Shown here one piece after another: positions 4,454-49,188 of a stretch of DNA of 64,000 bases (the stretch's first letter is position 1; each line of letters opens with the position of its first letter). The DNA lies in the NCBI GenBank assembly GCA_964472495.1, contig CAYYLD010000002.1, positions 27,949-91,948 of the forward strand. The letters are read 5' to 3'. Below the pieces are notes generated by a model. It made no database searches and was not told where the DNA came from. It saw nothing but the letters and a program-made list of their open reading frames with translations. This DNA comes from an uncultured Candidatus Saccharibacteria bacterium (lineage in GTDB: Bacteria; Patescibacteriota; Minisyncoccia; Portnoybacterales; UBA2143). The translations under genes were made by a program, and so were the position numbers.

Positions 4454-5542
4454 ATGGCTAAGGATTACTATGAAATATTAGGGGTGTCCCGGGGAGCTTC
4501 CGAGCAAGAGATAAAAAAGGCCTACCGGAAATTAGCTCTGCAATATCATCCAGATCGGGCACCGGCTGACAAGAAAAAGGAATACGAAGAAAAATTCAAA
4601 GAGATTAGTCAGGCCTATCGAGTCCTTTCCGATAAAGAAAAGAAAGCTCAATACGACCAATACGGACAGACCTTTGAAGGAGCGCCTTTCGGTCAAGGAT
4701 TTAGTCAACAGGATTTCCGTTCTTTCCACGAAGCCTTTGGCGGCCGCGACATTTTTGAAGATTTGGGTTTTGGCCGAATTTTTGAAGAGATGTTTGGTTT
4801 CGGCCCCCGAACCAGAACCAGACGAACTGCTCAATACGGACGAGATATTGCCGTAGATATGGAAGTAGATTTGAAAGATGCTTTTAACGGACTAAAGAAA
4901 GAGATTGATTTACGAAAGATGGTCACTTGTCCGGAATGCCAGGGCAAAGGCGGCCAGTCGTTAAAGAAATGCCCTGTCTGCCAGGGGACTGGTTACGAGC
5001 AAACCGGCCGCCAGGGTTTTTTAGGGTTTATTATTCAACAGAGGCCCTGCTCAAGGTGTCACGGCCGAGGCGAAATACCGGAAAAAGTTTGCCCTAAATG
5101 CGGCGGTCAGGGAAGAGTTGAGGAGACAAAGGAGATTAAAATAACCATTCCGGCTGGTATTGATGACGGACAGGTTCTTAGATTGAGCGGCCAGGGGGAA
5201 GCGGCTCCCTACGGTGGAACAGCCGGCGATTTGTTTATCAATATTCATCTGCGGCCTGACAAAAATTTCCAGCGACAGGGCGACGATTTACTTTATAACT
5301 TAGTTATCAACTTCAGCCAAGCGGCTTTAGGTGATAAAATAGAAATACCCACTTTGGCTGGCCCAGTTAATTTGAAAATTCCGGCTGGCAGTCAACCCGG
5401 CCAGCTGATCAAATTAAAAGGTAAGGGGATACCTTGTCTATACGGCCGCGGTCAGGGAGATTTGATTGTCAAGATTCAGGTAGAAGTTCCTAGGAAGTTA
5501 TCCCGAAGAGAAAAAGAGCTTATTAAGGACTTAGCCAAGTAG
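4454..5542 (+). CDS. dnaJ: Chaperone DnaJ
   Basis: J-domain (YYEILGV...HPDR), a G/F region and four CxxCxGxG zinc-finger repeats. Confidence 0.95.
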
Positions 5543-5549
5543 TATTTCA

Positions 5550-5725
5550 GAGTTCAGGATAACCATTTCGAGAAGATTAGATGACAAAAGATAACAACCG
5601 GGATAGTTTGGTAATAAAGAACTCTTTTGTCATCTTAGAGCAACCGCTTAAATAATAAATAGAATACTAACCAAGTCACGGCGGCTGCGACTTCGAGGAA
5701 TGGTTATCCTGAACTTCTTGAACTC
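5550..5725 (+). repeat. Structured intergenic repeat element, copy 1 of 3. It has nested inverted repeats with the conserved cores ACCATTTCGAGAAG, AGATGACAAAAG...CTTTTGTCATCT and GCAGCCGC...GCGGCTGC.
   Basis: About 180 bp, alignable with 10200-10372 and 33716-33895. The outer stem (gttcaggataacc / ggttatcctgaac) is self-complementary but differs between copies. Confidence 0.6.
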
Positions 5726-5734
5726 ATAGTCATT

Positions 5735-6280
5735 ATGTCTATTCGTGAATTATTAACTAATTTTCATGTCGGCACCGCTTCCGGCTGGGATTTGTTTGTT
5801 ATCCTTGTTTTCTTGGTGGCTGTTTTGGTCTACGGTTTTTTCCTCGGTCGCAATCGAATGATTATCTTGCTTTTGGGCAGCTATTTCTCTTTGATTATCA
5901 GTCAGGTTATTCCTTGGTCAAGAATTAGCGCTTTGGGCTGGTTGAGGATTGGTCAAGAACCATCGGCCTCTTTGAAAATTTTGGTTTTTGTCGGCTTAAT
6001 CCTGTTGTTTTATTTTCTCATACCGCGTTCTGTTCTTAGTTCGGCTTTAAGAATCAAGAAGAGAGGTGAGGCCGTTTGGTGGCAGATATTTGTTTTAAGC
6101 ATTGTTCAGTTGGGCCTTTTGGCAGCAATCATCTTTTCTTTTTTACCTGGTCAGACCATAGCTGATTTTACTCCTTTGGTCAAAAAGATATTCATTGGTC
6201 CGGAAGCTCAATTTATCTGGCTAACTTTGCCAATTCTGTTTATCGTTTTAATGCGCCGCAAGAAAAAGATAGAGGATTAA
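5735..6280 (+). CDS. Hypothetical membrane protein
   Basis: 181-aa ORF with several hydrophobic segments. Confidence 0.5.
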   Translation: MSIRELLTNFHVGTASGWDLFVILVFLVAVLVYGFFLGRNRMIILLLGSYFSLIISQVIPWSRISALGWLRIGQEPSASLKILVFVGLILLFYFLIPRSVLSSALRIKKRGEAVWWQIFVLSIVQLGLLAAIIFSFLPGQTIADFTPLVKKIFIGPEAQFIWLTLPILFIVLMRRKKKIED

Positions 6281-6326
6281 TAAATTTGTCCTTTAATAAC
6301 ATAGAGAAGAGAAAGGAGGATTTGGA

Positions 6327-6749
6327 ATGAAAAGATGGATAGGCCCGCCACAGTCTTTACTTATAGGTATTGCCGTATTTTTGGCTGTTATTGTTTTGAT
6401 TTCGGGCTTGCCTTTGGGTTTCGACGATAGATGGCAAGGAATGATAGTGGGTTTTGCTTTTTTTATCTTCATTCTTTTAAGGAACTCGGTTGATTGGTCC
6501 AGCCTCTTGGTGTATTCAGGAAGAAAGAATGAAGAAAGTATTATGGTGAATCTATTGACGCCTTTAATCTTTTCTTTAATAATGTCAGCTTTCGCTGTCT
6601 GTGGTTGTCAAATAAGTTTGGTAAAGGTAAGTTTATCTTTTCTGATAGCCGTAATCGCGGATATTCTTATCCGAATTTGGCTGGGTTGGAGAATGGCTCA
6701 AAATATTGGTGACAACAGAAGCAAAAGCAAAGAAGAATCGACTACTTGA
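6327..6749 (+). CDS. Hypothetical membrane protein
   Basis: 140-aa ORF with a strong RBS (AAGGAGGA) and hydrophobic segments. Confidence 0.5.
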   Translation: MKRWIGPPQSLLIGIAVFLAVIVLISGLPLGFDDRWQGMIVGFAFFIFILLRNSVDWSSLLVYSGRKNEESIMVNLLTPLIFSLIMSAFAVCGCQISLVKVSLSFLIAVIADILIRIWLGWRMAQNIGDNRSKSKEESTT

Positions 6750-6829
6750 TTCAACCTCGCAGTAAACCGTCTAAACTGGATTACTGCGGGGTTGATTTTT
6801 TTTAGAAAAAAAGATAAAATGATGAAAAT

Positions 6830-6900
6830 GGGGGTATAGCTCAATGGTAGAGCAGTGGCCTTTTAAGCCATTGATGGGGGTTCGATCCCCTCTACCCCTA
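6830..6900 (+). tRNA. tRNA-Lys (anticodon UUU)
   Basis: Cloverleaf folded by hand. Acceptor GGGGGTA/TACCCCT, D-arm GCTC-AATGGTA-GAGC, anticodon arm GTGGC-CTTTTAA-GCCAT, T-arm GGGGG-TTCGATC-CCCTC, discriminator A. CCA is not encoded. A hairpin follows at 6905-6930. Confidence 0.85.
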
Positions 6901-6944
6901 CTTTTATAGCCTCGGAGGCCGAGAACGGTCCTCGGACTTAAAAT

Positions 6945-7886
6945 ATGACTATTAGACAAATCTACAATTTAGCTCTCAAAATGGGTATTGAAGCGGATTT
7001 GCGGGGTAAAACCGAAGTCAAAAAATACTTGGCTCACCAGAAAGAAAATTATCAGAAACTGCCGCCGGAAAAGAAAAAAGAATTCGATAGAGAGCGACTG
7101 AGTAATCCTTACTCCGATACTCGTATTTTGAACGAACCCAAAAATCCTCAAAAGTCAATTAAAAGGATTTTGGCCGGTATTGATATTGGGGTGTCTGAAT
7201 TGCTTTTGGCCAAAGAATTGGGCAAGATTGATTTGATTTTTTCTCATCATCCTCACGGTCAGGCCTTGGCTAATTTAGACGATGTTATGCAATTACAGGC
7301 CGAAGTTCTGGCTCAATATGGCGTCCCGATTAACGTGGCCGAAGGATTACTGAAACCGAGAATTTCAGAAGTGGCCCGCTCGCTTTCTCCAGCTAATCAT
7401 AACCGGGTCGTTGATGCCGCTAAATTACTCCATCTGGGATTTATCTGCGTTCACACGGCCTGCGATAATTTAGTGGCCAATTTTCTAGACCAAAAGATAA
7501 AAAAATCGCAACCGGAATATGTCGGCGACCTGTTAAAGCTTTTGAAAGAAATTCCCGAGTATAAAGAGGCGATTAAAATTGGTGCCGGGCCGTGGCTTTT
7601 TGTCGGCGAGGAAGGGAATCGTTGTGGCAGGATCGCTTTGACTGAAATTACCGGCGGCACCGAGGGTTCGGCCAAAATTTACGAAAAGATGGCTCAAGTA
7701 GGCATTGGAACAATTATTGGCATGCACATGTCAGAAGAGCATAAAAACGAAGCCGAAGCGGCTCATATTAACGTAGTCGTGGCCGGCCATATGTCTTCTG
7801 ATTCTATCGGGGTCAACATTCTTCTCGACCAATTAAAAAAACAGGGGATTGAGGTTATTCCCTGCGGCGGATTAATCCGTAAATAG
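6945..7886 (+). CDS. Nif3-family dinuclear metal center protein
   Basis: N-terminal DLIFSHHPHG motif and C-terminal GHMSSDSIG motif. The length fits the family. Confidence 0.5.
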   Translation: MTIRQIYNLALKMGIEADLRGKTEVKKYLAHQKENYQKLPPEKKKEFDRERLSNPYSDTRILNEPKNPQKSIKRILAGIDIGVSELLLAKELGKIDLIFSHHPHGQALANLDDVMQLQAEVLAQYGVPINVAEGLLKPRISEVARSLSPANHNRVVDAAKLLHLGFICVHTACDNLVANFLDQKIKKSQPEYVGDLLKLLKEIPEYKEAIKIGAGPWLFVGEEGNRCGRIALTEITGGTEGSAKIYEKMAQVGIGTIIGMHMSEEHKNEAEAAHINVVVAGHMSSDSIGVNILLDQLKKQGIEVIPCGGLIRK

Positions 7887-10178: not shown

Positions 10179-10199
10179 TTAATATATAGTTAGATTTAG

Positions 10200-10372
10200 A
10201 AGCTCAACCTAACCATTTCGAGAAGCTTAGATGACAAAAGATACCAACTAAGAGGGAAGGGTAATGAAGAACTCTTTTGTCATCTTAGAGCAGCCGCTTA
10301 AATAATAAATGGAGAACAATGGCGTCACGGCGGCTGCGTCTTCAAGAAATGGTTAGGTTGAGCTTTGACAAG
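10200..10372 (+). repeat. Structured intergenic repeat element, copy 2 of 3
   Basis: Same conserved cores as 5550-5725. The outer stem here is gctcaacctaacc / ggttaggttgagc. Confidence 0.6.
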
Positions 10373-15164: not shown

Positions 15165-15197
15165 GGGGCGTCCCTTTTTAGTAAAAAGGGACGCCCC
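15165..15197 (+). terminator. Rho-independent terminator hairpin GGGGCGTCCCTTTTT-agt-AAAAAGGGACGCCCC
   Basis: Perfect 15-bp stem after ftsW. It is a family member of the GGGCGTCCC motif. Confidence 0.6.
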
Positions 15198-19533: not shown

Positions 19534-19574
19534 TTAAGGCCTACAAAAGCTTAAGAATATATCTTCCAGCTAAC

Positions 19575-19601
19575 GCGAAAATCCCCAGCGAGGATTTTCG
19601 C
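19575..19601 (+). terminator. Hairpin GCGAAAATCC-N7-GGATTTTCGC followed by a second GC stem and T-run
   Basis: Perfect 10-bp stem seen in the sequence. Confidence 0.4.
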
Positions 19602-19640
19602 TGTAGTGAGCTGCTCGCTCTTTTTGCCTCGCAAAAAACC

Positions 19641-20105
19641 ATGCCCATTCGCAGCTCAATGCCGCTGGAAAATATATTCTTAAGCTTTATCATAATCATG
19701 CGACATCTTATCTTAATTATTTTTATTCTCTTTTTTCCTGGTTTTGCTTTAGCCCAGAATCCGGAAGGATCGGCTAATTTAGAAAAGTTAGATAGATTTT
19801 ATGAACAGATTAATGAAAAAGCCCTCCAGCCGATGAAACAACTAAGCGACAAACTCTCGGAAAGTATGGAGAAAAGCTTAGAAAAAGTTATAGAAAAAAT
19901 TAAACAAAAGAAACATCAGAAACAAGAAGAAATAAAGGAAGAAGTTAAAAGAGAAGTCAAAGAAGGAGCTCGAGAATGGGGCCAGAGCTTGGCCATTTGG
20001 ATTGAAGACCAGCTAGCTCCCCTAAAAATTAAAGTTCAAGAGGGGAGTAGCCTGATTAGAGAAAGAGTTAATCAGATAAAAGACTGGTTAATTGGCTTAT
20101 TTTAA
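19641..20105 (+). CDS. Hypothetical secreted charged/coiled-coil protein
   Basis: A signal-peptide-like segment MRHLILIIFILFFPGFALAQ is present, so the true start is probably the ATG at 19701. The protein is rich in K and E. Confidence 0.45.
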   Translation: MPIRSSMPLENIFLSFIIIMRHLILIIFILFFPGFALAQNPEGSANLEKLDRFYEQINEKALQPMKQLSDKLSESMEKSLEKVIEKIKQKKHQKQEEIKEEVKREVKEGAREWGQSLAIWIEDQLAPLKIKVQEGSSLIRERVNQIKDWLIGLF

Positions 20106-20249
20106 AAGGAAAAATATAGACATATCTTCAGAGGAGAGGGGATTTATCCACATAGACAATTTGACGGCCTGAGAGCCGTATATTAAAATGGATACAATGT
20201 CGCATAATAATCCTTAATACACATTTAATATATTGATTTTGGCTAATCT

Positions 20250-21191
20250 ATGCAAAAAAGCTTAAAACCACTTCCCCAGCATTTAAACGATTTTTTGGAC
20301 TGGTTAGATATTGAAAAAGGTTTATCTAATAAATCTCAGGAAAACTATTCCCGCTTCCTCAAAAAATTTATTGACTGGCTAAAGGAGAATGACCTTGAGG
20401 GCTTGAAGCCCCATCAGCTCTCCCCCACTCATATCTGGAATTATCGGGTCTATCTTTCCCGTCAATCCAAAAAACCATTAAAAAAATCAACTCAAAACTA
20501 TTATTTGATTGCCTTGAGGTCCCTTTTAAACTATTTTGCCAATCGGGATATCTTATCCTTGCCAGCCGAAAAAATTAAATTAGCTAAAGATAAAGATGAT
20601 AAAAAAGTAAGCTTTCTAAGCTTGGAACAATTAGAAAAATTATTTTCAGCCCCGGATGTTTCTAAACGCAATGGTCTCCGCGACCGAGCTATTTTAGAAA
20701 GCTTATTCTCAACTGGTCTTAGAATTGCTGAATTGGTTTCACTTGACCGCGAACAAATTAATCTAAAACCGACGACTAAAGAATTAGAATTAGGCATTGT
20801 CGGTAAAGGTAATCGGCCGCGAACGGTCTATTTTTCCGAAAGAGCTGTCCATTGGCTAAATAGGTATTTAGAAAGCCGCAAAGATAAAGATAAGGCCTTA
20901 TTTATCAATTACCGAAGCAGAAAAAAATCAGAGCGTCGATTAACTGACCGCTCTATCGAAAGAATTATTAAAAGATACGCTCTCTTAGCCGGCCTGCCTA
21001 TCAACACAACTCCTCATACTTTGCGCCATTCCTTTGCTACTGACCTTTTAAGCCAAGGGGTTGACTTACGGATTATTCAGGAATTTTTAGGTCATCGTAA
21101 TATTGCCACTACTCAAGTTTATACTCATGTAACCAATCAACGTCTGCGCGACATCCATCGCCAATTCCATAGTGGCAAAAAATTAAAATGA
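20250..21191 (+). CDS. Tyrosine site-specific recombinase of the XerC/XerD family
   Basis: C-terminal catalytic signature HTLRHSFATDLL...LGHRNIATTQVYTHV (R-H-R-Y) and an N-terminal SAM-like core-binding domain. Confidence 0.85.
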   Translation: MQKSLKPLPQHLNDFLDWLDIEKGLSNKSQENYSRFLKKFIDWLKENDLEGLKPHQLSPTHIWNYRVYLSRQSKKPLKKSTQNYYLIALRSLLNYFANRDILSLPAEKIKLAKDKDDKKVSFLSLEQLEKLFSAPDVSKRNGLRDRAILESLFSTGLRIAELVSLDREQINLKPTTKELELGIVGKGNRPRTVYFSERAVHWLNRYLESRKDKDKALFINYRSRKKSERRLTDRSIERIIKRYALLAGLPINTTPHTLRHSFATDLLSQGVDLRIIQEFLGHRNIATTQVYTHVTNQRLRDIHRQFHSGKKLK

Positions 21192-21284
21192 TGCTAAAAT
21201 ATAGGATTATCCCAATATTTTCATCGTTCGCTCGGAAATAAAAATTTATTTTCATTTCTCTCGCTCACTCGAAAATAAGCCATT

Positions 21285-22433
21285 ATGCGCATCTCTTATT
21301 CGGCCCTGGACACTTTTTCCACTTGTCCGGCCAAGTATAAATATCAATACATTGATAAAATAGCTGTTCTTAAATCAAAAGAGTTGGTTTTCGGCACTTT
21401 GATTCATGAATGCATGCACATGTTCCACGAACCGACACGGTCAACGCCTGTTTCCGAAGATGAACTGCTCAAGTATTTCGCTGAAAAATGGGATGCTAGT
21501 GTTTACCAAAACGACCAGGAAGAATCTTTTGCCTTTCACCAAGGTGTTGCCCTGTTAAAGAAATACTATTTGCAAAATCAAGGAGCCGATTTTAATATCG
21601 TCGACTTGGAAACGCCCTTTGAGGTTCCCTTTTTAGAAAACAAGGAACTTCACCAAATTACCGGCCGGATTGACCGGATTGACAAACTGGCTGACGGCAC
21701 CTTTGAATTGATTGATTATAAAACGTCTAGGAAGATGCCTTCTCAGGAGAATGTTGATAGAAACTTCCAGCTTTCGGTCTATTATCTGGGTATTACCAAC
21801 CGCTGGCCCTCGCTCCAAAAAGAAAACAGACCGGTCAAATTATCTCTCTATTATCTCATTCATGGTGAAAAACTTTCCACTCTCCGGACTAATCAGCAAG
21901 CTCAAGAAAGCAAAGAAAAGATTTTATCTCTAATTAGTCAAATCAAAGAAAGTGATTTTCAGCCGCGGGCTAATCCGCTTTGTTCTTGGTGTCAGTATCA
22001 ACCTTATTGCCCTCTCTACAAACATAAATTTATCCAAGAACAATCCCCTGCTCCTGATGACCAGAAAATAAAAGAAGTTATTGATGAGTATTTCCAAATT
22101 AAAGATAAACAAAGTCAGGATAATCAAAGACTGAACAAATTAAAAGAAATGATTAATCAGTATCTTAACCAGAAAGGGTTGGAACGGCTCTTTGGCCGAA
22201 ACGGCCAGATTACTCGCTTGCCCCAGAAAAGATTTAGCTATAACTTTAATAAAGTGAAAGAAGTTCTGGAACCGATGGGTAAATGGAACCAGATTTTAAC
22301 CATTGACCCAGCCAAATTTAAAAAGATAATTGATTCCCTGCCTTACCAGGCCAAAAAGCAAATTGACCAAGCCAAAACCTTGGAAAGAGAATTTAAGGTC
22401 ATTTCAGCCAGCAAGAAATCGCTCGGAAAGTAA
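21285..22433 (+). CDS. PD-(D/E)XK nuclease superfamily protein, Cas4/RecB-like with a Cys cluster
   Basis: ELIDYKTS motif plus an N-terminal C and C-terminal CSWCQYQPYC, the four-Cys Fe-S pattern of Cas4/AddB-type nucleases. No cas genes or CRISPR array are nearby. Confidence 0.55.
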   Translation: MRISYSALDTFSTCPAKYKYQYIDKIAVLKSKELVFGTLIHECMHMFHEPTRSTPVSEDELLKYFAEKWDASVYQNDQEESFAFHQGVALLKKYYLQNQGADFNIVDLETPFEVPFLENKELHQITGRIDRIDKLADGTFELIDYKTSRKMPSQENVDRNFQLSVYYLGITNRWPSLQKENRPVKLSLYYLIHGEKLSTLRTNQQAQESKEKILSLISQIKESDFQPRANPLCSWCQYQPYCPLYKHKFIQEQSPAPDDQKIKEVIDEYFQIKDKQSQDNQRLNKLKEMINQYLNQKGLERLFGRNGQITRLPQKRFSYNFNKVKEVLEPMGKWNQILTIDPAKFKKIIDSLPYQAKKQIDQAKTLEREFKVISASKKSLGK

Positions 22434-22560
22434 TTTCAGGAGACGCAAATTTTTCTCCAGCGGAAAAATTTGCTCAGTACTCGACAAAATTTCGCCGGAG
22501 GCGAACCAAGCAATTTTGTCTCCGTATGCTCCTGAAAATTACATTTCCTCGCTCCTGTTT

Positions 22561-22959
22561 TTAAGGTCTATAACCTGCCGGAGTATATTTATCAAAATAA
22601 CCGCAGGGGGCATAGCCAGCCGCTTGGGCTTCCGCCTCGGAAGAAAACCAAATTTGGTTTTGGGGAGAGATTTTTTTGGCCGATGGACATTCCGGCCAGT
22701 GATATTTATTGCTGTTAACACTGCCGACGAATTTCCCCTGCTCTGTTTCTTCCTGTTCTGTTTCTCCCGCTAGCCGACTGGTTTCCAAGGATTGTTCAAT
22801 TGAAGCGGTCGGTCCTTGAATAACTATCGGCTCCTGACCAATTTGATGAGCAGTCAGACGACCGGCTCCAAAGCTGATTAAGGTGACTAAAACAATACCG
22901 ATAGTCAGGGTTATATCAGATTGATGCTCCTTGACGAAGTTTTTAAAATTGGTTAACAT
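22561..22959 (-). CDS. Hypothetical membrane-anchored protein
   Basis: N-terminal TM (ITLTIGIVLVTLISFGAG) and a C-terminal H/C-containing motif (YHWPECPS...GYAPCGYF). The ATG at 22959 is preferred over the TTG at 22977. Confidence 0.4.
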   Translation of the reverse strand: MLTNFKNFVKEHQSDITLTIGIVLVTLISFGAGRLTAHQIGQEPIVIQGPTASIEQSLETSRLAGETEQEETEQGKFVGSVNSNKYHWPECPSAKKISPQNQIWFSSEAEAQAAGYAPCGYFDKYTPAGYRP

Positions 22960-23017
22960 TATTTCATAAGGGTTCAACTCTCAAGTTAACCTGATGGCTG
23001 AACTCTACAAACGAATC

Positions 23018-23293
23018 ATGTCTAAAACTAAATCGGCCGGTTCAACATCGCTCGGCCGAGATTCTCAACCAAAATATTTAGGAGTCAAATTATTCGGCGG
23101 CCAGTCAGCCCAGCCGGGCAGTATTATTGTCCGCCAAAGAGGCAGTAAATTTAGAGCTGGTAAAAACGTCCGCCGCGGTAACGATGATACCCTTTACGCT
23201 ATCGCTAAAGGGGCGGTTAAATTTATCACTAAGAAAGTTAAGCGCTTTGACGGTTCCCGTCGAGTGGTCAAGGTGGTTAATGTAGAACCTTAA
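23018..23293 (+). CDS. rpmA: 50S ribosomal protein L27
   Basis: [29 protein letters not shown]...[18 protein letters not shown] matches the L27 consensus. The ORF-track start at 22994 adds a spurious 8 aa. Confidence 0.85.
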
Positions 23294-23323
23294 TTTTTAA
23301 AAAATTTTTGAGAGGAGGCAGAA

Positions 23324-23680
23324 ATGGAGGGAGGGATTTTTATCACGGACAGAGTAAACGGTAAACTCTTCGCCGACAGAATTGTTATAAAAAGTGACGG
23401 CCGGGTAAGAAAAATAAAACTCAAGGAGTGGATAGAAGGAAAGATAGAAGTCCTCGCTAAATCTGACACATTTGACAAGCTTGTCTGCGTGGTCGTTGAA
23501 AATAAGTCTCTGAAAATTGCTTTCCGTTTAAAGGATATTAGACCGGGATTGGAAAGAAAGACAACCGGCCAGGACTTTTATTCCGGCAAATTTGTTCCTT
23601 GGGTATGTGCTCTTATTAGTTTTGGCCAAGAAACATCTCTTAAAGAAAAAATGGAAAAAGCGATTGCCGGGATTGATTAA
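23324..23680 (+). CDS. Hypothetical protein, 118 aa
   Basis: Strong RBS: GAGAGGAGGCAGAAATG. Confidence 0.45.
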   Translation: MEGGIFITDRVNGKLFADRIVIKSDGRVRKIKLKEWIEGKIEVLAKSDTFDKLVCVVVENKSLKIAFRLKDIRPGLERKTTGQDFYSGKFVPWVCALISFGQETSLKEKMEKAIAGID

Positions 23681-23706
23681 ATCCTAAACTGATTAAATCA
23701 CGAAGA

Positions 23707-23740
23707 AGAGATCTCTTATCAGAGACCTCTTTTTTATTTC
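23707..23740. terminator. Bidirectional terminator hairpin between the convergent 23324 gene and pyrG
   Basis: GAGATCTCT...AGAGACCTC stem with a T-run on the plus side. The stem is perfect with G-U on the minus transcript. Confidence 0.4.
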
Positions 23741-25356
23741 ATTCCTGCCTTAACAAACTCTCTAAATAGAGGGTGAGGCCGTAAGGGCCGCGATTTGAAC
23801 TCCGGATGAAATTGGGTAGCCACAAAAAACGGATGGTTTTTAAACTCAATTATCTCTACTAAATTCTTTTCCGGATTAATGCCAGCCATAATCATCCCCT
23901 TCTCCTCTAAAATATCTCTAAAATCATTATTCAATTCATAGCGATGACGATGTCGTTCCAGAACCTCCTGGCGTCTATAGGCCTGACGGGCTCGGCTGTT
24001 TTTGATCAGCCGACATCGATAAGTCCCTAAACGCATTGAACCGCCGTAACGCTTATCCTGAAGATTAATTTTTTGTTCCGGCATTATATCAATAACCGGA
24101 TATTTTGTCGTTGGATTGATTTCGGTGGTATGGGCCCCTTTTAGCCGACAAACATTTCGAGCAAACTCAACCACGGCTAATTGCATCCCATAACAAAGTC
24201 CCAGATAAGGGATTTTATTCTTCCGGCAAAATTCAATCGTTTTAATCTTACCTTCGGTCCCCCGTTCTCCATAGCCACCCGGGACAATTACCCCATCAAG
24301 TTTTTTTAACTCTTTAATTTTTTGCGGCGACCTTTCATATTCTTCTGAGTTCAGCCAGTGAATTCTTGCTTTCCTTTGATGATGCCAAGCGGCGTGTTTA
24401 ACCGCCTCAATCACCGAAATATAAGAATCAGAGAGAATAAAATTCCCCGTACTAAAATATTTACCAACAATACCGATATTAACCTGTTTGTTGGCGTTTT
24501 TAATGGTCTTAACTAAATTTTGCCAATTTCCTAAATTTTTTTTTCTTGATTTTAAGCCGAATTGGCTCAAGATTTTCTGGCCGATTTTGTCTTTCTCGAA
24601 ATTTATTGGTACCTCATAAATGATTTGGATATCCGGAGCGGAAATAACGTGGGACTGTTCCAGATTACAAAAAATAGAGATTTTCCTTTTTCTTGGTTCG
24701 TCCAGCGGATATTCCGAGCGAGCAATAATAAAATCAGGCTGAATACCGGCCGAATTGAGGGTCCGGACGGCTGATTGAGTCGGCTTGGTCTTCATTTCCC
24801 CAATCTTTTTTGGCACAGGCAGATAACTGACTAAAATAAAAAGAACATCCTGGGGATGTTCTAAATGAAGCATTCTGGCCGCCTCCAGAAACAAAACATT
24901 TTGATATTCGCCAACCGTGCCGCCGATTTCGATGAGGACAAAATCAGCTTGTTCCTTCTTGGCTACCCGGCTAATCCGCCTAATCACTTCTTCGGGGATA
25001 TGAGGAACCACCTCCACACATTTCCCCTCATAGCCTAGATTCCGTTCTCTTTGAATAACCGTCTCGTAAACTCGGCCAGTGGTTATATAATTATCAGTGT
25101 ATAAATCCTGGTTTAAAAATCTTTCGTAGTTGCCAATGTCTTGGTCTGTTTCGATGCCGTCCTCGGTAACAAAGACCTCGCCATGTTCAATCGGATTCAT
25201 TGTTCCGGCATCAACATTGATGTAGGGATCAATTTTGATGGCCGCTACCTGATACCCTTTACTTTGGAGAATTCTGCCGATAGAAGCCGTGGCAATTCCC
25301 TTGCCGATGCCTGACATTACCCCTCCCATCACAAAAATGTATCTTGTCTTCGGCAT
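23734..25356 (-). CDS. pyrG: CTP synthase
   Basis: N-terminal MPKTRYIFVMGGVMSGIGKGIATASIGRIL. A C-terminal glutamine amidotransferase domain is present. Confidence 0.95.
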   Translation of the reverse strand: MPKTRYIFVMGGVMSGIGKGIATASIGRILQSKGYQVAAIKIDPYINVDAGTMNPIEHGEVFVTEDGIETDQDIGNYERFLNQDLYTDNYITTGRVYETVIQRERNLGYEGKCVEVVPHIPEEVIRRISRVAKKEQADFVLIEIGGTVGEYQNVLFLEAARMLHLEHPQDVLFILVSYLPVPKKIGEMKTKPTQSAVRTLNSAGIQPDFIIARSEYPLDEPRKRKISIFCNLEQSHVISAPDIQIIYEVPINFEKDKIGQKILSQFGLKSRKKNLGNWQNLVKTIKNANKQVNIGIVGKYFSTGNFILSDSYISVIEAVKHAAWHHQRKARIHWLNSEEYERSPQKIKELKKLDGVIVPGGYGERGTEGKIKTIEFCRKNKIPYLGLCYGMQLAVVEFARNVCRLKGAHTTEINPTTKYPVIDIMPEQKINLQDKRYGGSMRLGTYRCRLIKNSRARQAYRRQEVLERHRHRYELNNDFRDILEEKGMIMAGINPEKNLVEIIEFKNHPFFVATQFHPEFKSRPLRPHPLFREFVKAGMK

Positions 25357-31050: not shown

Positions 31051-32112
31051 TTATTTAAACCACCTTTCCATCTGCCTGGCTTTTAATTTCTTATTGGCCA
31101 TAATTATTTTCCTCTTTTGCCAGGCTGCGGGCATCTGCTTAAACAAATCCCTAATTGCCCGCCAGGTATATCTTTCCAAAAGAAGAACGTAAAACCAGGA
31201 AGCGATTTCTTTAGGCAAAAACCAAGGCAAATGTTTCAGTAAAAGGCCGATTTGTTCGTTCTTAATCTGCATCAGCCGCTGATTTTTAAAAGCCAGATAT
31301 TTAGAAAATTTATTAATTTTTAATCTTTCCCGGATAATGCTGAAATAGTTCGAAGCGGCGCTCTCGCCGGAAGTGCGCGCATGCCAAGCCAGACAGGCCG
31401 GCTGATAAATACTCTTCCAGCCAGCCAAACGCAAGCGCCAAGCCAAATCAACGTCTTCTTTATAGCAAAAAAAATCTTCATCAAAATACTCGTCATTTCC
31501 CTCGACCCGACTGGAGACAAAAATTCTAATATCTTCTAAGGCCTGACGTCGATAAACCGGTGCCGCTCCATCGGCTCCAAAAATCTCTTCTTTTTTCTCA
31601 AATTGACCTTGTTCAATTTCTCCCTGTCCCCGATTGACAATCCGTCTGTTTTTTAAAACAACCAAACCGGTTGTATCAACGATATAAGATATTTGATAAT
31701 CGGTTGGTCGACCCAAAGACAAATTGCCGATATTCCAGCGCAATAATTTTCCCTGAAGAGCGCTTGTCTTGCTGTCTTTGAGCAGCTCTTGAACAGCCCT
31801 CTGAATAAAATCTCTATCCAGAACAACGTCCTGATTAAGACAACAAACAAAATCTCCCCGACTTTCCCTGATCCCTTGATTGTGACCAGCCGCAAAGCCG
31901 AGATTCTTTTGATTAAAAATAATCCTTAGATTAGGCCGGTCCTTTAAACTTTTTAAATAATCAATTGTTCCGTCAGCGGACTGATTGTCAATAATTAAAA
32001 CTTCCAGCCGAGGATAACTCTGCTTAAAAACCGAAGCCAAACAACTTTCCAGATACGGCCGGGCGTTATGAGTAAGTAGATTTATAGAAACCAAAGGATG
32101 ATTTTGCTCCAT
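31051..32112 (-). CDS. Glycosyltransferase family 2
   Basis: SINLLTHNARPYLESCLASVFKQSYPRLEVLIIDNQSADGT. Confidence 0.75.
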   Translation of the reverse strand: MEQNHPLVSINLLTHNARPYLESCLASVFKQSYPRLEVLIIDNQSADGTIDYLKSLKDRPNLRIIFNQKNLGFAAGHNQGIRESRGDFVCCLNQDVVLDRDFIQRAVQELLKDSKTSALQGKLLRWNIGNLSLGRPTDYQISYIVDTTGLVVLKNRRIVNRGQGEIEQGQFEKKEEIFGADGAAPVYRRQALEDIRIFVSSRVEGNDEYFDEDFFCYKEDVDLAWRLRLAGWKSIYQPACLAWHARTSGESAASNYFSIIRERLKINKFSKYLAFKNQRLMQIKNEQIGLLLKHLPWFLPKEIASWFYVLLLERYTWRAIRDLFKQMPAAWQKRKIIMANKKLKARQMERWFK

Positions 32113-33676
32113 ATAATACAGCTAAATTAACTACAAAAAACAAAAAAACCTTATCATTAAGGAGAACCACATCAAATAAACTATAACCGAAAACCCAAAT
32201 TAAGGCAAGTAGAAAAAAGCCGGCCCAGACGCGGAAAAAAGGCTTTTTATGACGACTGAAAACCTGCCAAGTATCTTTCAAAATATAGCCAAAAATAGTT
32301 AATAAAATGAGCAAACCAAAGATACCTGCTTCAGCGGCCATATCTAAATATAAGCTATGAGCGGAAGCGCCTTTTTTGGCTGTTGACAAAGGCTCATTAA
32401 GGACTAAGGGATAATTACCTATGCCCACTCCCAGAAGAGGATGAATGATAATTGAATCTGCTGTCCTCCGCCAAATTTCCAAGCGGCTCTTAACCGATAG
32501 TTCGGATAAATCAATAATACTTCTGGCTCTCTCAAAAAAAGAAACCCCGGAAATCGCTTCCTGGCCTAACTGAATATATTGAGGTAAGAAAAGAATAGCT
32601 GAAGCAGTCGGGAATAAAATAAAAAATATAATTAGAGTCCCTAAAATGAGTTGAATTTCTTGCGACCATTTTTTGGCATATTTGGGCTTCAAAAATTTCG
32701 TCCAGGCCCGAATGCTCGGTGACCAATAGAACAAAATAATCAATAAAAATACCAGACAGGAAATCAGAGCGCTGACCCAGGCGCCTCTGGAGCCGGAAAA
32801 AATAATAGCCAATAAACAAACAATCAGAAAAAGATAATAGAAAACGGCCTTTTCTCTACTGCCTTTTGGCCGGAAAAAGATTGTCGTCAGGAAGCAAGGC
32901 AGGGCCAAGACACAAAAAAAAGCAAAAGAATGAGAATCAGGAAAGACAGAAAACATTCGTAAAGTGGGCAGCTGATAGGAATAATAGGAAAACCAGGTAT
33001 TGCTGTAAGACAAAAGGACGCTCAAACCCTGACCATAAAAGACATTGATGAAGTATTTATCCCAAAGATACCAAAACTGGTTGAGATTAATAAAAAAGAC
33101 CATAGCCAACTGGAAAAAACCAATTCCCAGAGTCAAACCGATAGCTACTCTAATAGCGCTAAAAATCTTAAAAATAACCTCTTTGTTCCGGGCAATTAAA
33201 TTTCTGATAATTATATAAAGCAGAAAAACGTTAATCAGAAAGAGCAGCTTTTTGATTCCCAGCCAGATGTCTTCGGCTACCAAAAGCGAAAGGGCGCTGA
33301 TAAACAGAAAGAGAGCTGCCAGATATTCCATCGGATAATGTTTAAATTTTTCCTTTAGTTTCCAGCGGCCTGCCTTTTTGACTAAATTAACCGAGAGACC
33401 TTCCTTGAAAAATAAAACCAAAAACAGAATAGTCAATAAAATCCGCCAGTTAGCCATTGAGTCAAAGTTTTCACTAATCGGTAAAGCGATAAACAAAGGA
33501 ATAGAGGCGATAAAGACCCAGAGAGAATCTTCCAGGGGGCTGAAAAGAAAGTAAAAAATTAAAAGGCCGGTCAGGAACAAACTGGCCTCCCGGGGAAGCC
33601 AATTGAAGACCATTAAAAAAAGAGCCGCCACTTCGGTTAAGAGAATAGCTATATTTTTCGCTTTTGAGCTGTCCAT
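32066..33676 (-). CDS. O-antigen ligase/polymerase-like polytopic membrane protein (Wzy_C family)
   Basis: At least 10 TM helices and an HPLLGVGIGNY motif typical of the O-antigen ligase domain. It overlaps the 3' neighbour by 47 nt, so the start is uncertain. Confidence 0.55.
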   Translation of the reverse strand: MDSSKAKNIAILLTEVAALFLMVFNWLPREASLFLTGLLIFYFLFSPLEDSLWVFIASIPLFIALPISENFDSMANWRILLTILFLVLFFKEGLSVNLVKKAGRWKLKEKFKHYPMEYLAALFLFISALSLLVAEDIWLGIKKLLFLINVFLLYIIIRNLIARNKEVIFKIFSAIRVAIGLTLGIGFFQLAMVFFINLNQFWYLWDKYFINVFYGQGLSVLLSYSNTWFSYYSYQLPTLRMFSVFPDSHSFAFFCVLALPCFLTTIFFRPKGSREKAVFYYLFLIVCLLAIIFSGSRGAWVSALISCLVFLLIILFYWSPSIRAWTKFLKPKYAKKWSQEIQLILGTLIIFFILFPTASAILFLPQYIQLGQEAISGVSFFERARSIIDLSELSVKSRLEIWRRTADSIIIHPLLGVGIGNYPLVLNEPLSTAKKGASAHSLYLDMAAEAGIFGLLILLTIFGYILKDTWQVFSRHKKPFFRVWAGFFLLALIWVFGYSLFDVVLLNDKVFLFFVVNLAVLYGAKSSFGFYKSTYS

Positions 33677-33715
33677 TATTAAAGTTTATCTTTTGGTTGC
33701 CCTAAACATTCCTCA

Positions 33716-33895
33716 AAGTCGCACCAGAGGCCACCCTAACCATTTTGAAAGGCCTAGATGACAAAAGCAACAGCCGAACTTGGAAAAGTAAAAAGTAAAG
33801 CTTTTGTCATCTCGGAGCAGAGGTTCAATTTAATCAGGAATACCAGTTAATTCTGGCCGCTGCGTCCTTGAAAAATGGTTAGGGTGGCCTCCGGA
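33716..33895 (+). repeat. Structured intergenic repeat element, copy 3 of 3 (the most divergent)
   Basis: It shares ACCATTTtGAaAgG, AGATGACAAAAG/CTTTTGTCATCT and GGCCGCTGCG with the other copies. The outer stem is ggccaccctaacc / ggttagggtggcc. Confidence 0.55.
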
Positions 33896-33898
33896 GAC

Positions 33899-35296
33899 TT
33901 AATATCCTTTCAGTTTCTTAGAGCCCTTATGCTGGCGCATTCTTTCCAGGGCCTTGGCCTCAATTTGGCGAATGCGCTCCCGGGTTACCCCGAACTCCTG
34001 ACCAACCTCCTCTAAAGTGTGAGTAATGCCGTCCTTCAAACCGAAACGCATTTCCAAAATCTTCTGTTCACGCGGCGATAAATCAACCAAGATTTCCTTT
34101 AAGCGGCTGCGCAATAGTTTGCGAGCGGCCACTTGAGCTGGCGAAATTGTCTTTTTGTCTTCAATAAATTCACCCAAACTGCTTTCTTCGTCCTCATCGC
34201 CGACCGGCGCTTCCAGAGAAAGGGTTTCCTGGGAAATTTTCATAATTTGCCTGATTTTATCCACTGTCTCGCCCATCTCGGCAGCTACTTCCTCGGGCAG
34301 GGGCTCGCGACCTAAGTCCTGCAGAAGCCGCCGTTTAATTTGAGTATATTTACTAATCGTTTCAACCATATGAACCGGAATACGGATAGTTCTCGCTTGG
34401 TCAGCCAAAGCTCGGGTAATCGCCTGGCGAATCCACCAGGTCGCATAAGTAGAAAATTTATAACCCCGGTGATAATCAAATTTCTCTACGGCCTTAAAAA
34501 GACCAATATTGCCTTCCTGAATCAAATCTAAAAGAGTCAGATTGCGACTACGACCAACGTATCTCTTGGCAATACTAACGACCAAGCGCAAATTGGCTTG
34601 GGTCAGTTTTTGTCTAGCTTCTTCGTCCCCTTTCTCAATCTGTTTAGCTAATTTAACCTCTTCTTGGGCAGTCAGCAAAGAGATTTTTCCGATTTCCCTT
34701 AAGTACATCTGGACATTATCAAAGGTTTCTAATTTGAAAGAAGTTTTTTCTTTCAGAACAGCTTTTTTCTCTTTTCTGGTTGAAGGTGCTTCTAAAAACT
34801 CAACCGATTCAATTATTCGGATATTATTGTCCTTGAGGCGCTGACAAACTTCTTCCAAGCCGACAATATCTTCCTCAATCCGGGGCACTAATTTAATAAT
34901 TTCGGACTCGGTAACAAACCCGCGTTCCCGCCCCCGGTTAACTAGCTCCTGAATTTTGTCTTCGGTGATTAATACCTTTCTTCTGGCTTTTCTCGCTTGA
35001 CTAATCTTTTTCTTTGGCCGACGAACAATTTTCCTCTGACTGCTGACTTTTCTTTTTTTGGCCGGTCGGCTAATTCGTTTCTTAAGCCGACTGGCTGCTT
35101 TTTGCCTAATTGGTTTTTTAACTTTTCTTGCTTTTCGACTGGCTGTTTTTTCGGTTTTTCGATGAGCAGCCGGCTTTTTCTCGATTCGGCGAGACGCTTT
35201 TCTGACTTTCCTCTTGGGAGTTATTTTTTTGCTCGAGGGACGATGCCGGCCGGCAGACCGTAATCTTCTACCCCGAACGACTTTCTTTTTTACCAT
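33899..35296 (-). CDS. rpoD: RNA polymerase sigma factor RpoD/SigA with a highly basic N-terminal extension
   Basis: Regions 2-4 are present ([40 protein letters not shown]; region 4 HTH). The first ~110 aa are K/R-rich instead of the acidic region 1.1. Confidence 0.9.
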
Positions 35297-39159: not shown

Positions 39160-39247
39160 TGGCGGAGAGGGCGGGATTCGAACCCGCGATACCTTGCGGT
39201 ATACCTGTTCTCCAAACAGGCGCACTAGGCCACTATGCGACCTCTCC
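39160..39247 (-). tRNA. tRNA-Ser (anticodon GGA), class II with a long variable arm and encoded CCA
   Basis: Minus-strand fold: acceptor GGAGAGG/CCTCTCC, anticodon arm CCTGT-TTGGAGA-ACAGG, 16-nt variable arm, T-arm GCGGG-TTCGAAT-CCCGC, discriminator G, then CCA. Confidence 0.85.
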
Positions 39248-39336
39248 CTTTAAATCCATTTAAGGTTTGCTATTGATATTCCACGATCTTGCGAAGCAAG
39301 GTCATCGTATTAGAAAGGGTGAATCTTAAATGGATT

Positions 39337-43159: not shown

Positions 43160-44803
<1,644 letters not shown>

Positions 44804-44860
44804 TCACAGCCGGAAAAGAACCTGCTTTGCCATCAAAACAGATTCTCTCAGCCATAACTT

Positions 44861-45139
44861 TTATTTCTCCAAAATTGCCAAAATATCCTCCTCTCTGGCA
44901 ATCAAATATTCTTTATTATCTATTTTAATTTCATTAGGTCCGTATTTGGTAAATAAAACAATATCGCCCTTCTTAACATTAATCGGTTTATTGGGACGGC
45001 CCGGACCGACGGCCACCACTTTGCCCTGTTCGGGCTTTTCTTTTTCAGCCGTCTCCGGCAAAACAATACCCGATTTAGTTTTTTCTTCTGTGGAAATTGG
45101 TTCAATGAGAACCCGGTCAGCTAAAGGTTTAATGTTCAT
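44861..45139 (-). CDS. groS: Co-chaperonin GroES
   Basis: 92 aa: MNIKPLADRVLIEP...KTKSGIVLP mobile loop. Confidence 0.95.
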   Translation of the reverse strand: MNIKPLADRVLIEPISTEEKTKSGIVLPETAEKEKPEQGKVVAVGPGRPNKPINVKKGDIVLFTKYGPNEIKIDNKEYLIAREEDILAILEK

Positions 45140-45248: not shown

Positions 45249-45266
45249 GTCAGTTAGCGGCTTAGC

Positions 45267-45322
45267 GGGGCGTCCCTTTTTTATACGCCTTTTGCAAAGG
45301 GCGTATAAAAAAGGGACGCCCC
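45267..45322 (-). terminator. Long nested palindrome GGGGCGTCCCTTTTTT-ATACGCC...GGCGTAT-AAAAAAGGGACGCCCC. It terminates the 45333 gene.
   Basis: Seen in the sequence. It is the largest member of the GGGCGTCCC motif family. Confidence 0.5.
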
Positions 45323-45332
45323 GGGAGTAACG

Positions 45333-46373
45333 CTATACCCTCAAACCCGAGTCCTTTTCCTGAGCCATCCCAGCTAAACCCAACTCTTCCATTCGCCGGT
45401 TATACTTTTCTAAAATCCCCTTTTCCGGCGAGTCCGGATGGAATTCTAATTGATTATCGTCAAAGACAACCCGGCCGCCGGTCTGATAAGTTAAAGGGTC
45501 TTTTTTAATCCGTCTGAATTGAATCTTTTTGAGAATAAATTCCAAAGCATCACCTATTTGAGTATCCAAAATAGATTCTCTCAATTTCCTAATTGAATTG
45601 AATAAACGATTAGTTCCAACTTCTCTTAAATAACCCCTCCGGCTCTGAGGATAAAAAGTTAAATATTCGGTCAACCATTGATTAGTTCTCTGGAATTTCT
45701 TATACAACCCGGTCTCGGCCTGCCAAACCGGAATCAGATGAGCATAGGTCTGAGCATTGTATAAACTGGGCAAAGGGATTTTTAAGGACTGGTTGGTTAT
45801 ATAATGATTAAGACAAAATCTGTTTTTAGTCAACTGGCCGTGCCGCCGCTGGCCAAGCAAATGAACAAACAAGGTCGTTAATGCCCGACAAGTCCAAATG
45901 CGGCCAGCTTTGGTCACAATTAACAAATCAATATCTGATTCTTTTCTGGGATTATTCATGGCCAAGGAGCCGCTGACCATAATCAGGCGGATATAAGGAA
46001 TGGTCTGAAGTAATTTTGTTATCCGGCTGATTTTTTTCCAGCGCTGGTCAGCCAATTTCTGTTTTTTAATTCTTTGTTTAACTAAGCTGGTTCGGCCTTT
46101 TAAAAAATAAAAGCCGTTCTTTTGACCGATTAATTCAGTCAAAGCCGGACTATTGTCTAAAACTTCTAAAATGTGTTCAAAATCCAAGGATTGCCATTGA
46201 GGATCACGTCCCTCGCCTTTGGCGAGGGCGTATCCGAAAGGGCGATTCTTGGATTTTGATGACCTCGGCTCTAAACGTATCAAATACCTAAAAACTTCCC
46301 AGCCAGTCAGCGGCCGCTCCAAGACATCGTAATAAACCAGCGTAGCCAAAATTGCCTTTTCTAAATCAGTCAT
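45333..46373 (-). CDS. Nucleotidyltransferase-fold domain protein
   Basis: GSLAMNNPRKESDIDLLIV matches the Pol-beta-like NTase GS...DxD motif. Confidence 0.5.
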   Translation of the reverse strand: MTDLEKAILATLVYYDVLERPLTGWEVFRYLIRLEPRSSKSKNRPFGYALAKGEGRDPQWQSLDFEHILEVLDNSPALTELIGQKNGFYFLKGRTSLVKQRIKKQKLADQRWKKISRITKLLQTIPYIRLIMVSGSLAMNNPRKESDIDLLIVTKAGRIWTCRALTTLFVHLLGQRRHGQLTKNRFCLNHYITNQSLKIPLPSLYNAQTYAHLIPVWQAETGLYKKFQRTNQWLTEYLTFYPQSRRGYLREVGTNRLFNSIRKLRESILDTQIGDALEFILKKIQFRRIKKDPLTYQTGGRVVFDDNQLEFHPDSPEKGILEKYNRRMEELGLAGMAQEKDSGLRV

Positions 46374-46375
46374 AA

Positions 46376-46510
46376 TTTATAAGGGCGTGCATCGAGACTC
46401 CACATAGAGGGTTGCCCTCGAGATTCCACGCCCTTTGCGAAGCAAAGGACGTGGTCGAGAGGGCGACCCTTTAAGCAAGTCGTGGTCGAGAAGCATGCCC
46501 TTAAGGCGAA
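46376..46510. repeat. Left terminal inverted repeat (~135 bp) of a 2.8-kb IR-bounded cassette
   Basis: Its reverse complement aligns at about 95% identity with 49055-49188. It is made of AGGG-N3-CCCT mini-palindromes plus direct sub-repeats TCGAGAYTCCAC x2 and GTGGTCGAGA x2. Confidence 0.7.
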
Positions 46511-49054: not shown

Positions 49055-49188
49055 CGTTTTAAAGGGCGTACCTCTCGACCACGACTTGCCTAAAGGGTCG
49101 CCCTCTCGACCACGTCCTTTGCTTCGCAAAGGGCGTGGAATCTCGAGGGCAACCCTCTATGTGGAATCTCGATACACGCCCTTTATAC
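49055..49188. repeat. Right terminal inverted repeat (~135 bp) of the IR-bounded cassette
   Basis: Reverse complement of 46376-46510 with a few substitutions. Confidence 0.7.

Follow-up and report, generated by a model that had tools for sequence, protein, structure and literature searches.

A probable new family of palindromic intergenic repeats with a branched fold in one Patescibacteria lineage

The present analysis concerns a family of palindromic intergenic repeats, here termed family A, that occurs three times in a 64-kb stretch of DNA (the window) taken from contig CAYYLD010000002.1 of an assembly labelled Candidatus Saccharibacteria. The three copies, each of about 166 nt and all on the + strand, lie 4.6 and 23 kb apart among dnaK/dnaJ, aspS, tRNA-Lys and rpoD. 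An earlier reading of the letters alone, the original prediction, had described them as a three-copy structured element with copy-specific compensatory outer stems, and its locations stand, although the ends it placed at 5725, 10372 and 33716 overran a few bases into the flanks. The copies, with ends set at the limits of complementarity, and the parts of the first copy are as follows.

5550-5716, + strand: copy c1, following dnaJ, which stops at 5542, and preceding a 181-aa open reading frame (ORF) that starts at 5735, both on the + strand
10200-10365, + strand (10199-10366 counting a G-T pair): copy c2, following aspS, which stops at 10178, and preceding a peptidase S11 gene that starts at 10378, both on the + strand
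33727-33891, + strand: copy c3, of a different subfamily, antisense to both of its neighbours, rpoD (33899-35296, - strand) and an O-antigen-ligase-like gene (32066-33676, - strand)
5550-5569/5697-5716: outer stem of c1
5570-71/5695-96: GA/GA loop of c1
5572-75/5691-94: 4-bp helix of c1
5576-5591/5623-5638: hairpin 1 of c1
5640-5648/5680-5688: hairpin 2 of c1

Pairwise alignment gives the three copies a mean column identity of 77%, and an nhmmer profile built from them scores those same copies at E 4e-54 to 2e-48. A covariance model run over the 64-kb window with filters off returns exactly c1 to c3 at E of about 1e-35 to 1e-37 (163.6 bits and E 1.4e-35 for c1, 169 bits for c2 and 169.1 bits for c3), and the next matches, at E of at least 0.0016, are generic hairpins; scores of this size rule out chance. 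The outer-stem arms quoted in the original prediction are correct for each copy, and the conserved cores that it quoted are shared approximately, with variants in c3 (ACCATTTTGAAAGG, and further GCAGAGGT...GGCCGCTGC) and in c1 (GCAACCGC, producing an A-C mismatch). It is also true, as claimed, that the orientation remains constant as the flanking genes switch strand, c1 and c2 lying amid + genes and c3 amid - genes. Finally, the impression that the element belongs to no known RNA family agrees with Rfam 15, for which the window at the gathering threshold yields two tRNAs only and no family A match, and the c1 region at E<=10 yields only chance matches to mir-1255 and HYMAI, which score 14-15 bits where the cut-offs are 63-80.

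The fold of family A is a three-way junction, in which a 20-bp outer stem leads through a 2x2 GA/GA internal loop and 4 bp to two hairpins, the first with the stem (T)AGATGACAAAAG/CTTTTGTCATCT and the second with the stem GCAGCSGC/GCSGCTGC, each closed by a loop of about 31 nt. The inner arms of the conserved core read TAACCATTTC-GA-GAAG / CTTC-GA-GAAATGGTTA, and this core is enclosed by about 10-14 bp of further, site-specific complementary sequence. The arms thus defined are 24-26 bp long and 88-92% complementary around a short non-coding core, which is the arrangement of terminal inverted repeats in MITEs (miniature inverted-repeat transposable elements). Relative to shuffled sequences the fold of c2 has a z-score of -10.2 as RNA and -10.7 as DNA, and its opposite strand adopts the mirror fold at z -8.8. 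A small ORF beginning at the conserved ATG of AGATGAC was considered and rejected on a reading of the sequence, as its length differs between c1 and c2; on the same reading, these two copies have no internal ORFs in common.

Family A extends well beyond the window. A one-genome-per-species scan with exact patterns found seven copies in CAYFWT01 and one in CAZFBL01, both labelled Saccharibacteria, and a metagenome scan found 20 further loci; after removal of duplicates, metagenome-assembled genomes (MAGs) and metagenomes together hold 25 distinct copies, so that the expectation of more copies in related genomes has been confirmed. Covariance model R1, applied to the window (filters off) and to all loci, found no further or more divergent A copies and otherwise returned generic hairpins and copies of a second family, B (described below), at E 0.002-0.03. 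Viral contigs scanned for hairpin 1, the A arm-junction and the B core gave 0 matches. As to the host, the proteins most similar to the DnaJ and AspRS of the window bear the names Patescibacteria, Parcubacteria or Portnoybacteria, and because of these nearest relatives the host is placed in a lineage of the Candidate Phyla Radiation (CPR) for which the taxon labels conflict. The DnaJ and AspRS of the element-bearing MAGs (CAYFWT01 and CAZFBL01) are 75-84% identical to those of the window and of genomes named Portnoybacteria, Parcubacteria or Patescibacteria, including GCA_016782465.1 (L055), and the Saccharibacteria label of these MAGs is probably wrong. The literature searched on Saccharibacteria, Patescibacteria or CPR yielded no relevant account of elements of this kind.

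That the paired structure shared by family A is real is beyond doubt. RNAalifold applied to 23 sequences recovers the same 45 pairs, with two-sided changes at 23/45; standard pairs fill 98.2% of cells, as opposed to 85.0% in shuffles and 36-47% when partners are slid by 1-3 columns, and cells with two-sided changes number 147 against 43 in the control. The predicted pairing with two-sided changes accordingly holds in an alignment of 23-25 sequences. The pairs are about 96% Watson-Crick (1078/1124 cells) and about 2.7% G-U, and the outer ten pairs show 81 two-sided against 7 one-sided changes, many of them CG<->GC flips. As such flips have no wobble intermediate and G-U pairs are few, this pattern is unlike the stepwise compensation of an RNA.

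The core and the distal part of the stem have different histories, the identity of the core and that of the distal 10 bp being correlated over all pairs of copies at only r = 0.125. In three closer orthologous pairs the distal stems differ at 0/20, 3/20 and 3/20 positions, with 12/76, 18/77 and 32/78 differences at unpaired positions, and in two divergent, flipped orthologous pairs the distal differences are 9/20 and 12/20, with 16/77 and 31/77 unpaired. Most paralogues and copies from different sites, in turn, differ at 6-14 of 20 distal positions and at only 7-22 of about 77 unpaired ones; for example, L009 and L005, both from one MAG, have cores that are 94% identical and distal stems that differ at 8/20. 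Similar distal stems do occur in some pairs from different sites (2/20 for L015/L019 and 4/20 for L031/L033). The firm part of this comparison is that the distal stem largely stays with its site; the segment TAACC...GGTTA is the part that has spread or been homogenised among sites. Covariation in the distal 10 bp therefore largely compares different resident stems and is not stepwise compensation within one RNA lineage. In this sense the copy-specific compensatory outer stem of the original prediction is real, but its outer 10 bp is resident at the site and changes little in vertical descent. Hypermutation of the distal stem was considered and rejected, since the closer orthologues differ at only 0-3 of 20 positions.

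Two-sided changes have also arisen in place between orthologues, at position 3, from G-C to A-T (c1/L031) and from A-T to G-C (L012b/L029), and pairing is thus maintained locally. This upkeep could come from correction of one arm by the other through quasi-palindrome template switching, a known mutational route, or from selection for folding. It was also suggested, from the sequence of particular sites, that the distal stem might be derived from the target, by inverted duplication of a flank or by insertion into a pre-existing hairpin, as AG(C)TTCAGGA/TCCTGAA(G)CT surrounds A in the window and B in L040, and AATAGCTTCA is present in the empty site of L042. However, this suggestion is weakened by the similar distal stems carried at the unrelated sites of L033, L019 and L015/L020, and by the near-constant length and loose RRRNYYNSSS pattern of the distal stems.

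Comparison of orthologous sites reveals inversion of the core. The flanks of L031 are colinear with window positions 5439-7411 at 84-88% identity, yet its core is 80% identical to that of c1 when flipped and 41% when colinear; at the rpoD site, the cores of c3 and L009 are 75% identical flipped versus 49% colinear, and the flanks of L026 and L011 match in the flipped arrangement only. The GA/GA loop flips along with the core, which places the exchange point within the 20-bp perfect arms. No flip was seen in 7 near-identical strain pairs or in 8 population contigs that are 98.2-99.9% identical to the window, and these contigs are identical at c1 and c2; near-identical strains are contained in the JGI Ga0315544-549 series.

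The same sites may be occupied by A, by family B, which has the architecture of A and an unrelated sequence, by a remnant, or by nothing. Family B has a conserved core (hairpin loop CCAGCG; GGAACCATGCCCGCTCGCAAT), an inner stem TTTCAGC and fully copy-specific distal stems. Its copies in the window, a fossil of family A, and the occupancy of the orthologous sites compared are listed here.

19546-19688, + strand: family B copy, with a 25-bp outer stem and two hairpins (z -10.2)
22425-22548, + strand: family B copy between convergent genes (z -5.3)
1682-1720, between the HSP20 and dnaK genes: B solo stem, a TACC-closed outer stem without the two-hairpin core
33703-33718, - strand: fossil A inner arm, TAAACATTCCTCAAAG, about TAACCATTTCTCGAAG, the arm motif with 3 mismatches, adjoining c3
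Site downstream of dnaJ: A in the window and L031; B in L040 (DnaJ 95% identical); empty in L041 and L042, with gaps of 20-26 nt
Site downstream of aspS: A in the window and L052 (94%); B nowhere; empty in L053 and L055, with gaps of 29 and 3 nt
HSP20-dnaK site: A in CAYFWT-type genomes; full B in L040 and L042; B solo stem in the window

At the aspS site L052 shares its distal stem with c2. At the HSP20-dnaK site, full B copies stand in the same outer stem as the solo stem in the orthologues L040:955-1095 and L042:6930-7050, and some long palindrome is present in every genome examined; in L041, from the CAZFBL MAG, it is a palindrome of a fourth kind, about 175 nt long (L041:7015-7189) and unrelated to A or B, with the outer stem CAGCTGATTTATC.../...GAATCAGCTG. 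The site at 22425-22548, with B in the window, holds A at the orthologous site in L027. In L026:3931-4167 a complete B runs directly into the 3' half of A, beginning with the 3' arm of its hairpin 1, and this chimera suggests insertion of one family into the other or replacement of one by the other. The fossil arm at 33703-33718 is taken, from its sequence, as the remnant of an earlier copy or of a partial duplication, and chimera, fossil arm and solo stem are decay products of the kind expected of repeat DNA. Copies have been gained, lost, replaced and degraded over evolutionary time. Target-site duplications at the copy boundaries, as in a classical MITE, were not found against empty orthologous sites: there is none between c1 and the empty site of L041 (TTTCAG-TCTTAA versus TTTCAG-element-TCTTGA), no junction repeat between c2 and the empty L053 site, and no common target motif or dinucleotide in the flanks of the 25 copies.

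Beside family B, it was observed that the two full copies in the window lie in direct orientation on either side of a Xer-like tyrosine recombinase gene (20250-21191) and a PD-(D/E)XK nuclease gene (21285-22433); an association of B with this recombinase found no support in other loci. The cumulative GC skew peaks at about 20000-24000, where genes switch from + to - and converge, and this region, with the Xer-like gene beside it, looks like a replication terminus.

In their placement, the copies fill nearly all of very short intergenic gaps. Most lie 0-25 nt from both neighbouring ORFs, typically about 7 nt (median) past the upstream stop codon and about 16 nt ahead of the next start, with the upstream stop 0-26 nt away in most copies and 50-52 nt in two; a stop codon this near leaves little room for a promoter. 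Relative to the flanking genes, 9 copies have the same orientation, 9 the opposite and 2 a mixed one. A promoter-like TTGTCA-18-AATAAT is found inside c1 and c2 and has no counterpart in c3 and other subfamilies, so that a conserved internal promoter, being confined to one subfamily, was not accepted as a trait of the family. Family A as a whole conserves neither a promoter nor a terminator, no T-run follows the stem, and in none of the copies does the outer stem fall on a terminator-like site. Two near-perfect palindromes elsewhere in the window, at 15165-15197 and 45266-45323, are terminator-like, share GGGGCGTCCCTTTTT / AAAAAGGGACGCCCC and are unlike family A; they look like bidirectional intrinsic terminators, the second standing upstream of groES-groEL (43160-45139, - strand).

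Mismatches within the stems carry a possible trace of strand. Non-Watson-Crick cells on the + strand of the element comprise 25 G-T and 9 A-C events once close relatives are collapsed (p = 0.009), and the excess is present in copies co-oriented with the host genes (13 versus 7) and opposite to them (11 versus 4). A purely double-stranded mechanism predicts no asymmetry and selection on mRNA predicts a bias tied to the host strand, and the counts thus hint at a single-stranded form of fixed polarity, which is suggestive only. No larger element bracketed by solitary arm pairs was found in the window plus about 0.45 Mb of related loci.

In behaviour, family A comes nearest to ERIC, REPINs and bacterial MITEs. 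A REPIN is a doublet of REP units mobilised by a RAYT transposase, a short and non-autonomous repeat between genes whose single-stranded DNA or mRNA takes the form of a long hairpin; family A, too, forms hairpins, undergoes compensatory changes and persists vertically. REPIN hairpins have been described with conserved blocks, frequent compensatory changes in a region that keeps its pairing alone, and long vertical persistence (PMC3116915). However, family A is not composed of two inverted REP units, as its internal hairpins differ (AGATGACAAAAG versus GCAGCSGC) and only the outer arms are mutually inverted; it has two different internal hairpins and a three-way junction, its variable paired part lies at the ends and not in the middle, and it is without a GTAG-type REP head. 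No RAYT gene was found in the sequence examined (40 window ORFs and the called genes of L040-L055). With Correia/NEMIS, RUP and Nezha it shares a size of about 100-200 bp, terminal inverted repeats, lack of coding capacity and very stable predicted folds, as well as an intergenic, often co-transcribed position and filled and empty orthologous sites (PMC3184786). MITEs are defined by terminal inverted repeats together with target duplications, and co-transcription, with consequences for mRNA decay, is frequent among them (PMC3184786), whereas family A is without a direct target-site duplication, the outermost 10 bp of its arms are the least conserved, and no insertion sequence with matching ends was seen in about 0.5 Mb of related DNA. 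ERIC, or IRU, is imperfectly palindromic, about 127 bp long and located in transcribed regions between genes, with reported effects on mRNA decay (PMC3184786); like family A it occurs in either orientation and at conserved orthologous positions, but its sequence and host phylum are unrelated, its copies are described with TA-flanked ends and duplications, and family A is branched, with an inverting core. Thus, family A has neither the target duplication of a MITE nor the REP doublet of a REPIN, and no mobilising enzyme was found with it in the sequence examined, from which it would be a new variant and a member of neither family.

Taken together, these data allow family A to be read, as the probable if by no means certain interpretation, as a new non-autonomous palindromic intergenic repeat of MITE/REPIN/ERIC-like DNA in one Patescibacteria (CPR) lineage. 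Its behaviour resembles that of a selfish DNA repeat that recombines, and not that of an RNA gene, so that of the two possibilities left standing by the original prediction, a structured RNA or a MITE-like element, the dispersed MITE-like repeat with terminal inverted arms is retained and the RNA gene is not. This model proposes that recombination or template switching between the inverted arms may flip the core and may also keep the arms complementary; as the arms are mutual inverted repeats, recombination or conversion between or within copies could install the core either way, which would explain the flips. The folding strand might be a single-stranded DNA intermediate, as in mobility of the REPIN or IS200-IS605 type, and such a route would leave no target duplication. 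HUH-type mobility is indeed not expected to produce one. Where it is transcribed along with its neighbours, the mRNA of the operon would contain a long double-stranded stem whichever way the element points, and any effect on mRNA processing would be secondary.

Several observations weigh against this interpretation. In vertical descent, as seen between c2 and L052, the stems differ at 3/90 positions and the loops at 12/76, about fourfold less change in the stems, and the GA/GA loop (kept in 19/23 copies) and some conserved loop bases fit functional constraint, possibly at the RNA level. The terminal 10 bp is the most variable part of the element, the reverse of what is found in transposase-bound terminal inverted repeats. 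The search patterns fixed 11+11 bases of hairpin 1, by which the invariance of this hairpin is largely imposed; L052, the sole copy found purely by synteny, has one hairpin 1 change, to a G-T pair. No insertion event was observed between near-identical strains, the 8 population contigs being alike at c1 and c2. The most conservative count of the strand asymmetry, 15 versus 8 distinct columns, has p of about 0.21. Further, neither a transposase nor an HUH/Y1 enzyme nor a dedicated recombinase was found among the 40 window ORFs searched with Pfam, among the window ORFs identified by gene context, or among the called genes of L040-L055, which are partial genomes.

Some of these points would be accommodated if family A were a cis-acting RNA of benefit to the host, co-transcribed between cistrons and directing processing or stability there, for example as an RNase III site or as a 3' structure with a protective role, a reading that is unlikely but deserves to be taken seriously. 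The copies lie between co-directional genes just past stop codons, usually leaving about 12-25 nt for the next ribosome-binding site, and their stem of 20-26 bp with a three-way junction is long enough for double-strand-specific RNases such as RNase III. Stems roughly four times more conserved than loops between orthologues, the persistent tandem GA/GA loop, and the presence of an element of such architecture at the HSP20-dnaK site in every genome examined would all suit such a role. It could operate in either orientation, because the fold is nearly mirror-symmetric and both strands fold equally well, and ERIC and Correia repeats have a known influence on mRNA decay (PMC3184786). However, close relatives do without an element at the same sites, where gaps of 3-29 nt remain; the G-U excess stays on the + strand of the element in antisense-transcribed copies (11 versus 4); G-U pairs are scarce and transversion flips many, unlike RNA compensation; and the chimeras and fossils resemble decaying selfish DNA.

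It is a more speculative and rather doubtful proposal that A and B are substrates of an undescribed CPR structure-specific system, which would recognise the folded junction of one strand and install, exchange or flip a core of about 145 bp within a resident stem, with no target duplication. If true, this would represent cassette-like swapping of cores in intergenic hairpins.

A more conventional recombination substrate, an inverton or attC-like site at which a tyrosine or serine recombinase acts on the inner arms and possibly switches an internal promoter, is improbable. The inversion of the core at three orthologous sites, the exchange of A for B at the dnaJ site, where the distal stem is similar, the missing target duplication, the promoter-like TTGTCA-18-AATAAT of c1 and c2 and the Xer-like recombinase gene at 20250-21191 are all in its favour, as is the likeness of the inner arms NCCTAAC/GTTAGGN to RYYYAAC/GTTRRRY, the integron R-box consensus. 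Moreover, attC sites, including the Vibrio cholerae repeats, are recognised by structure and not by sequence, fold in a strand-specific manner and have a short conserved pair of inverse core and core as well as a variable, possibly branched terminal structure. However, attC sites form arrays at cassette 3' ends, all pointing one way and next to an intI gene, whereas family A forms no cassette arrays and is dispersed among housekeeping genes with an orientation of 50:50, its pairing runs 10-14 bp beyond the R-box-like motif, and no integron integrase or invertase adjoins any copy. Unlike an inverton, each locus keeps one orientation throughout the 8 population contigs and 7 near-identical strain pairs, without a flipped variant; the promoter-like motif is not in c3 or other subfamilies, and the Xer gene, which is located where the GC skew switches, looks like a housekeeping gene.

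Less credible still is a stand-alone gene for a small RNA, present in several copies that each have a promoter and a terminator of their own. Strong structure with two-sided changes, a G-U excess on one element strand and conserved loop positions could be cited for it, but a median of about 7 nt to the upstream stop codon leaves no promoter room, the sole promoter-like site is internal and would transcribe the 3' third only, there is no terminator, the sites may be empty or held by another family, and Rfam holds no relative. The discrete structured-RNA gene entertained in the original prediction is therefore not upheld, in view of the 9:9 orientation, the core flips, the lack of promoter room and the lack of conserved signals; nor is the terminator or bidirectional terminator, as family A differs from intrinsic terminators in having no T-run after the hairpin. 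Chance similarity or a local duplication of terminator DNA, to which the hairpin shape and nothing else lends itself, can be dismissed as next to impossible given 25 copies dispersed over several genomes and unrelated sites, E-values of about 1e-35 and no T-run after the stem.

Two further kinds of palindrome were observed in the window. The first is a third, G+C-rich family of nested TCGAGATTCCAC/GTGGTCGAGA units with no Rfam match, and the second is a single hairpin.

46385-46501, + strand, and 49063-49179, - strand: G+C-rich family, also at 46177-46259 and, outside the window, at L026:14047-14161 and L026:7261-7433
39253-39336: 84-nt hairpin with 22-bp near-perfect arms, adjoining tRNA-Ser (39160-39247) in a 514-nt gap without a gene

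Between the two inverted 117-nt copies of the G+C-rich family stand a sigma-70 region-4-like gene (46606-48174) and one with a CxxCxxCC domain (48120-48932); these copies share 88-89% identity with one from a different CPR contig.

On present evidence family A is not a new category of system. A very small and tightly packed CPR genome nevertheless maintains at least three long palindromic repeat families within a 64-kb window, with A present three times, B twice together with a remnant, and the G+C-rich family besides, at sites where the gap in relatives may be only 3-29 nt. Family A also provides a caution for the discovery of RNAs by covariation, as pairing has been preserved in an element whose stem and core have different histories. 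In practical terms, it supplies markers for tracking strains and lineages in CPR metagenomes and probably gives rise to breaks and inversions in assemblies. If the single-strand polarity proves true, family A would bring hairpin-dependent mobility to a phylum whose mobile DNA is poorly known.

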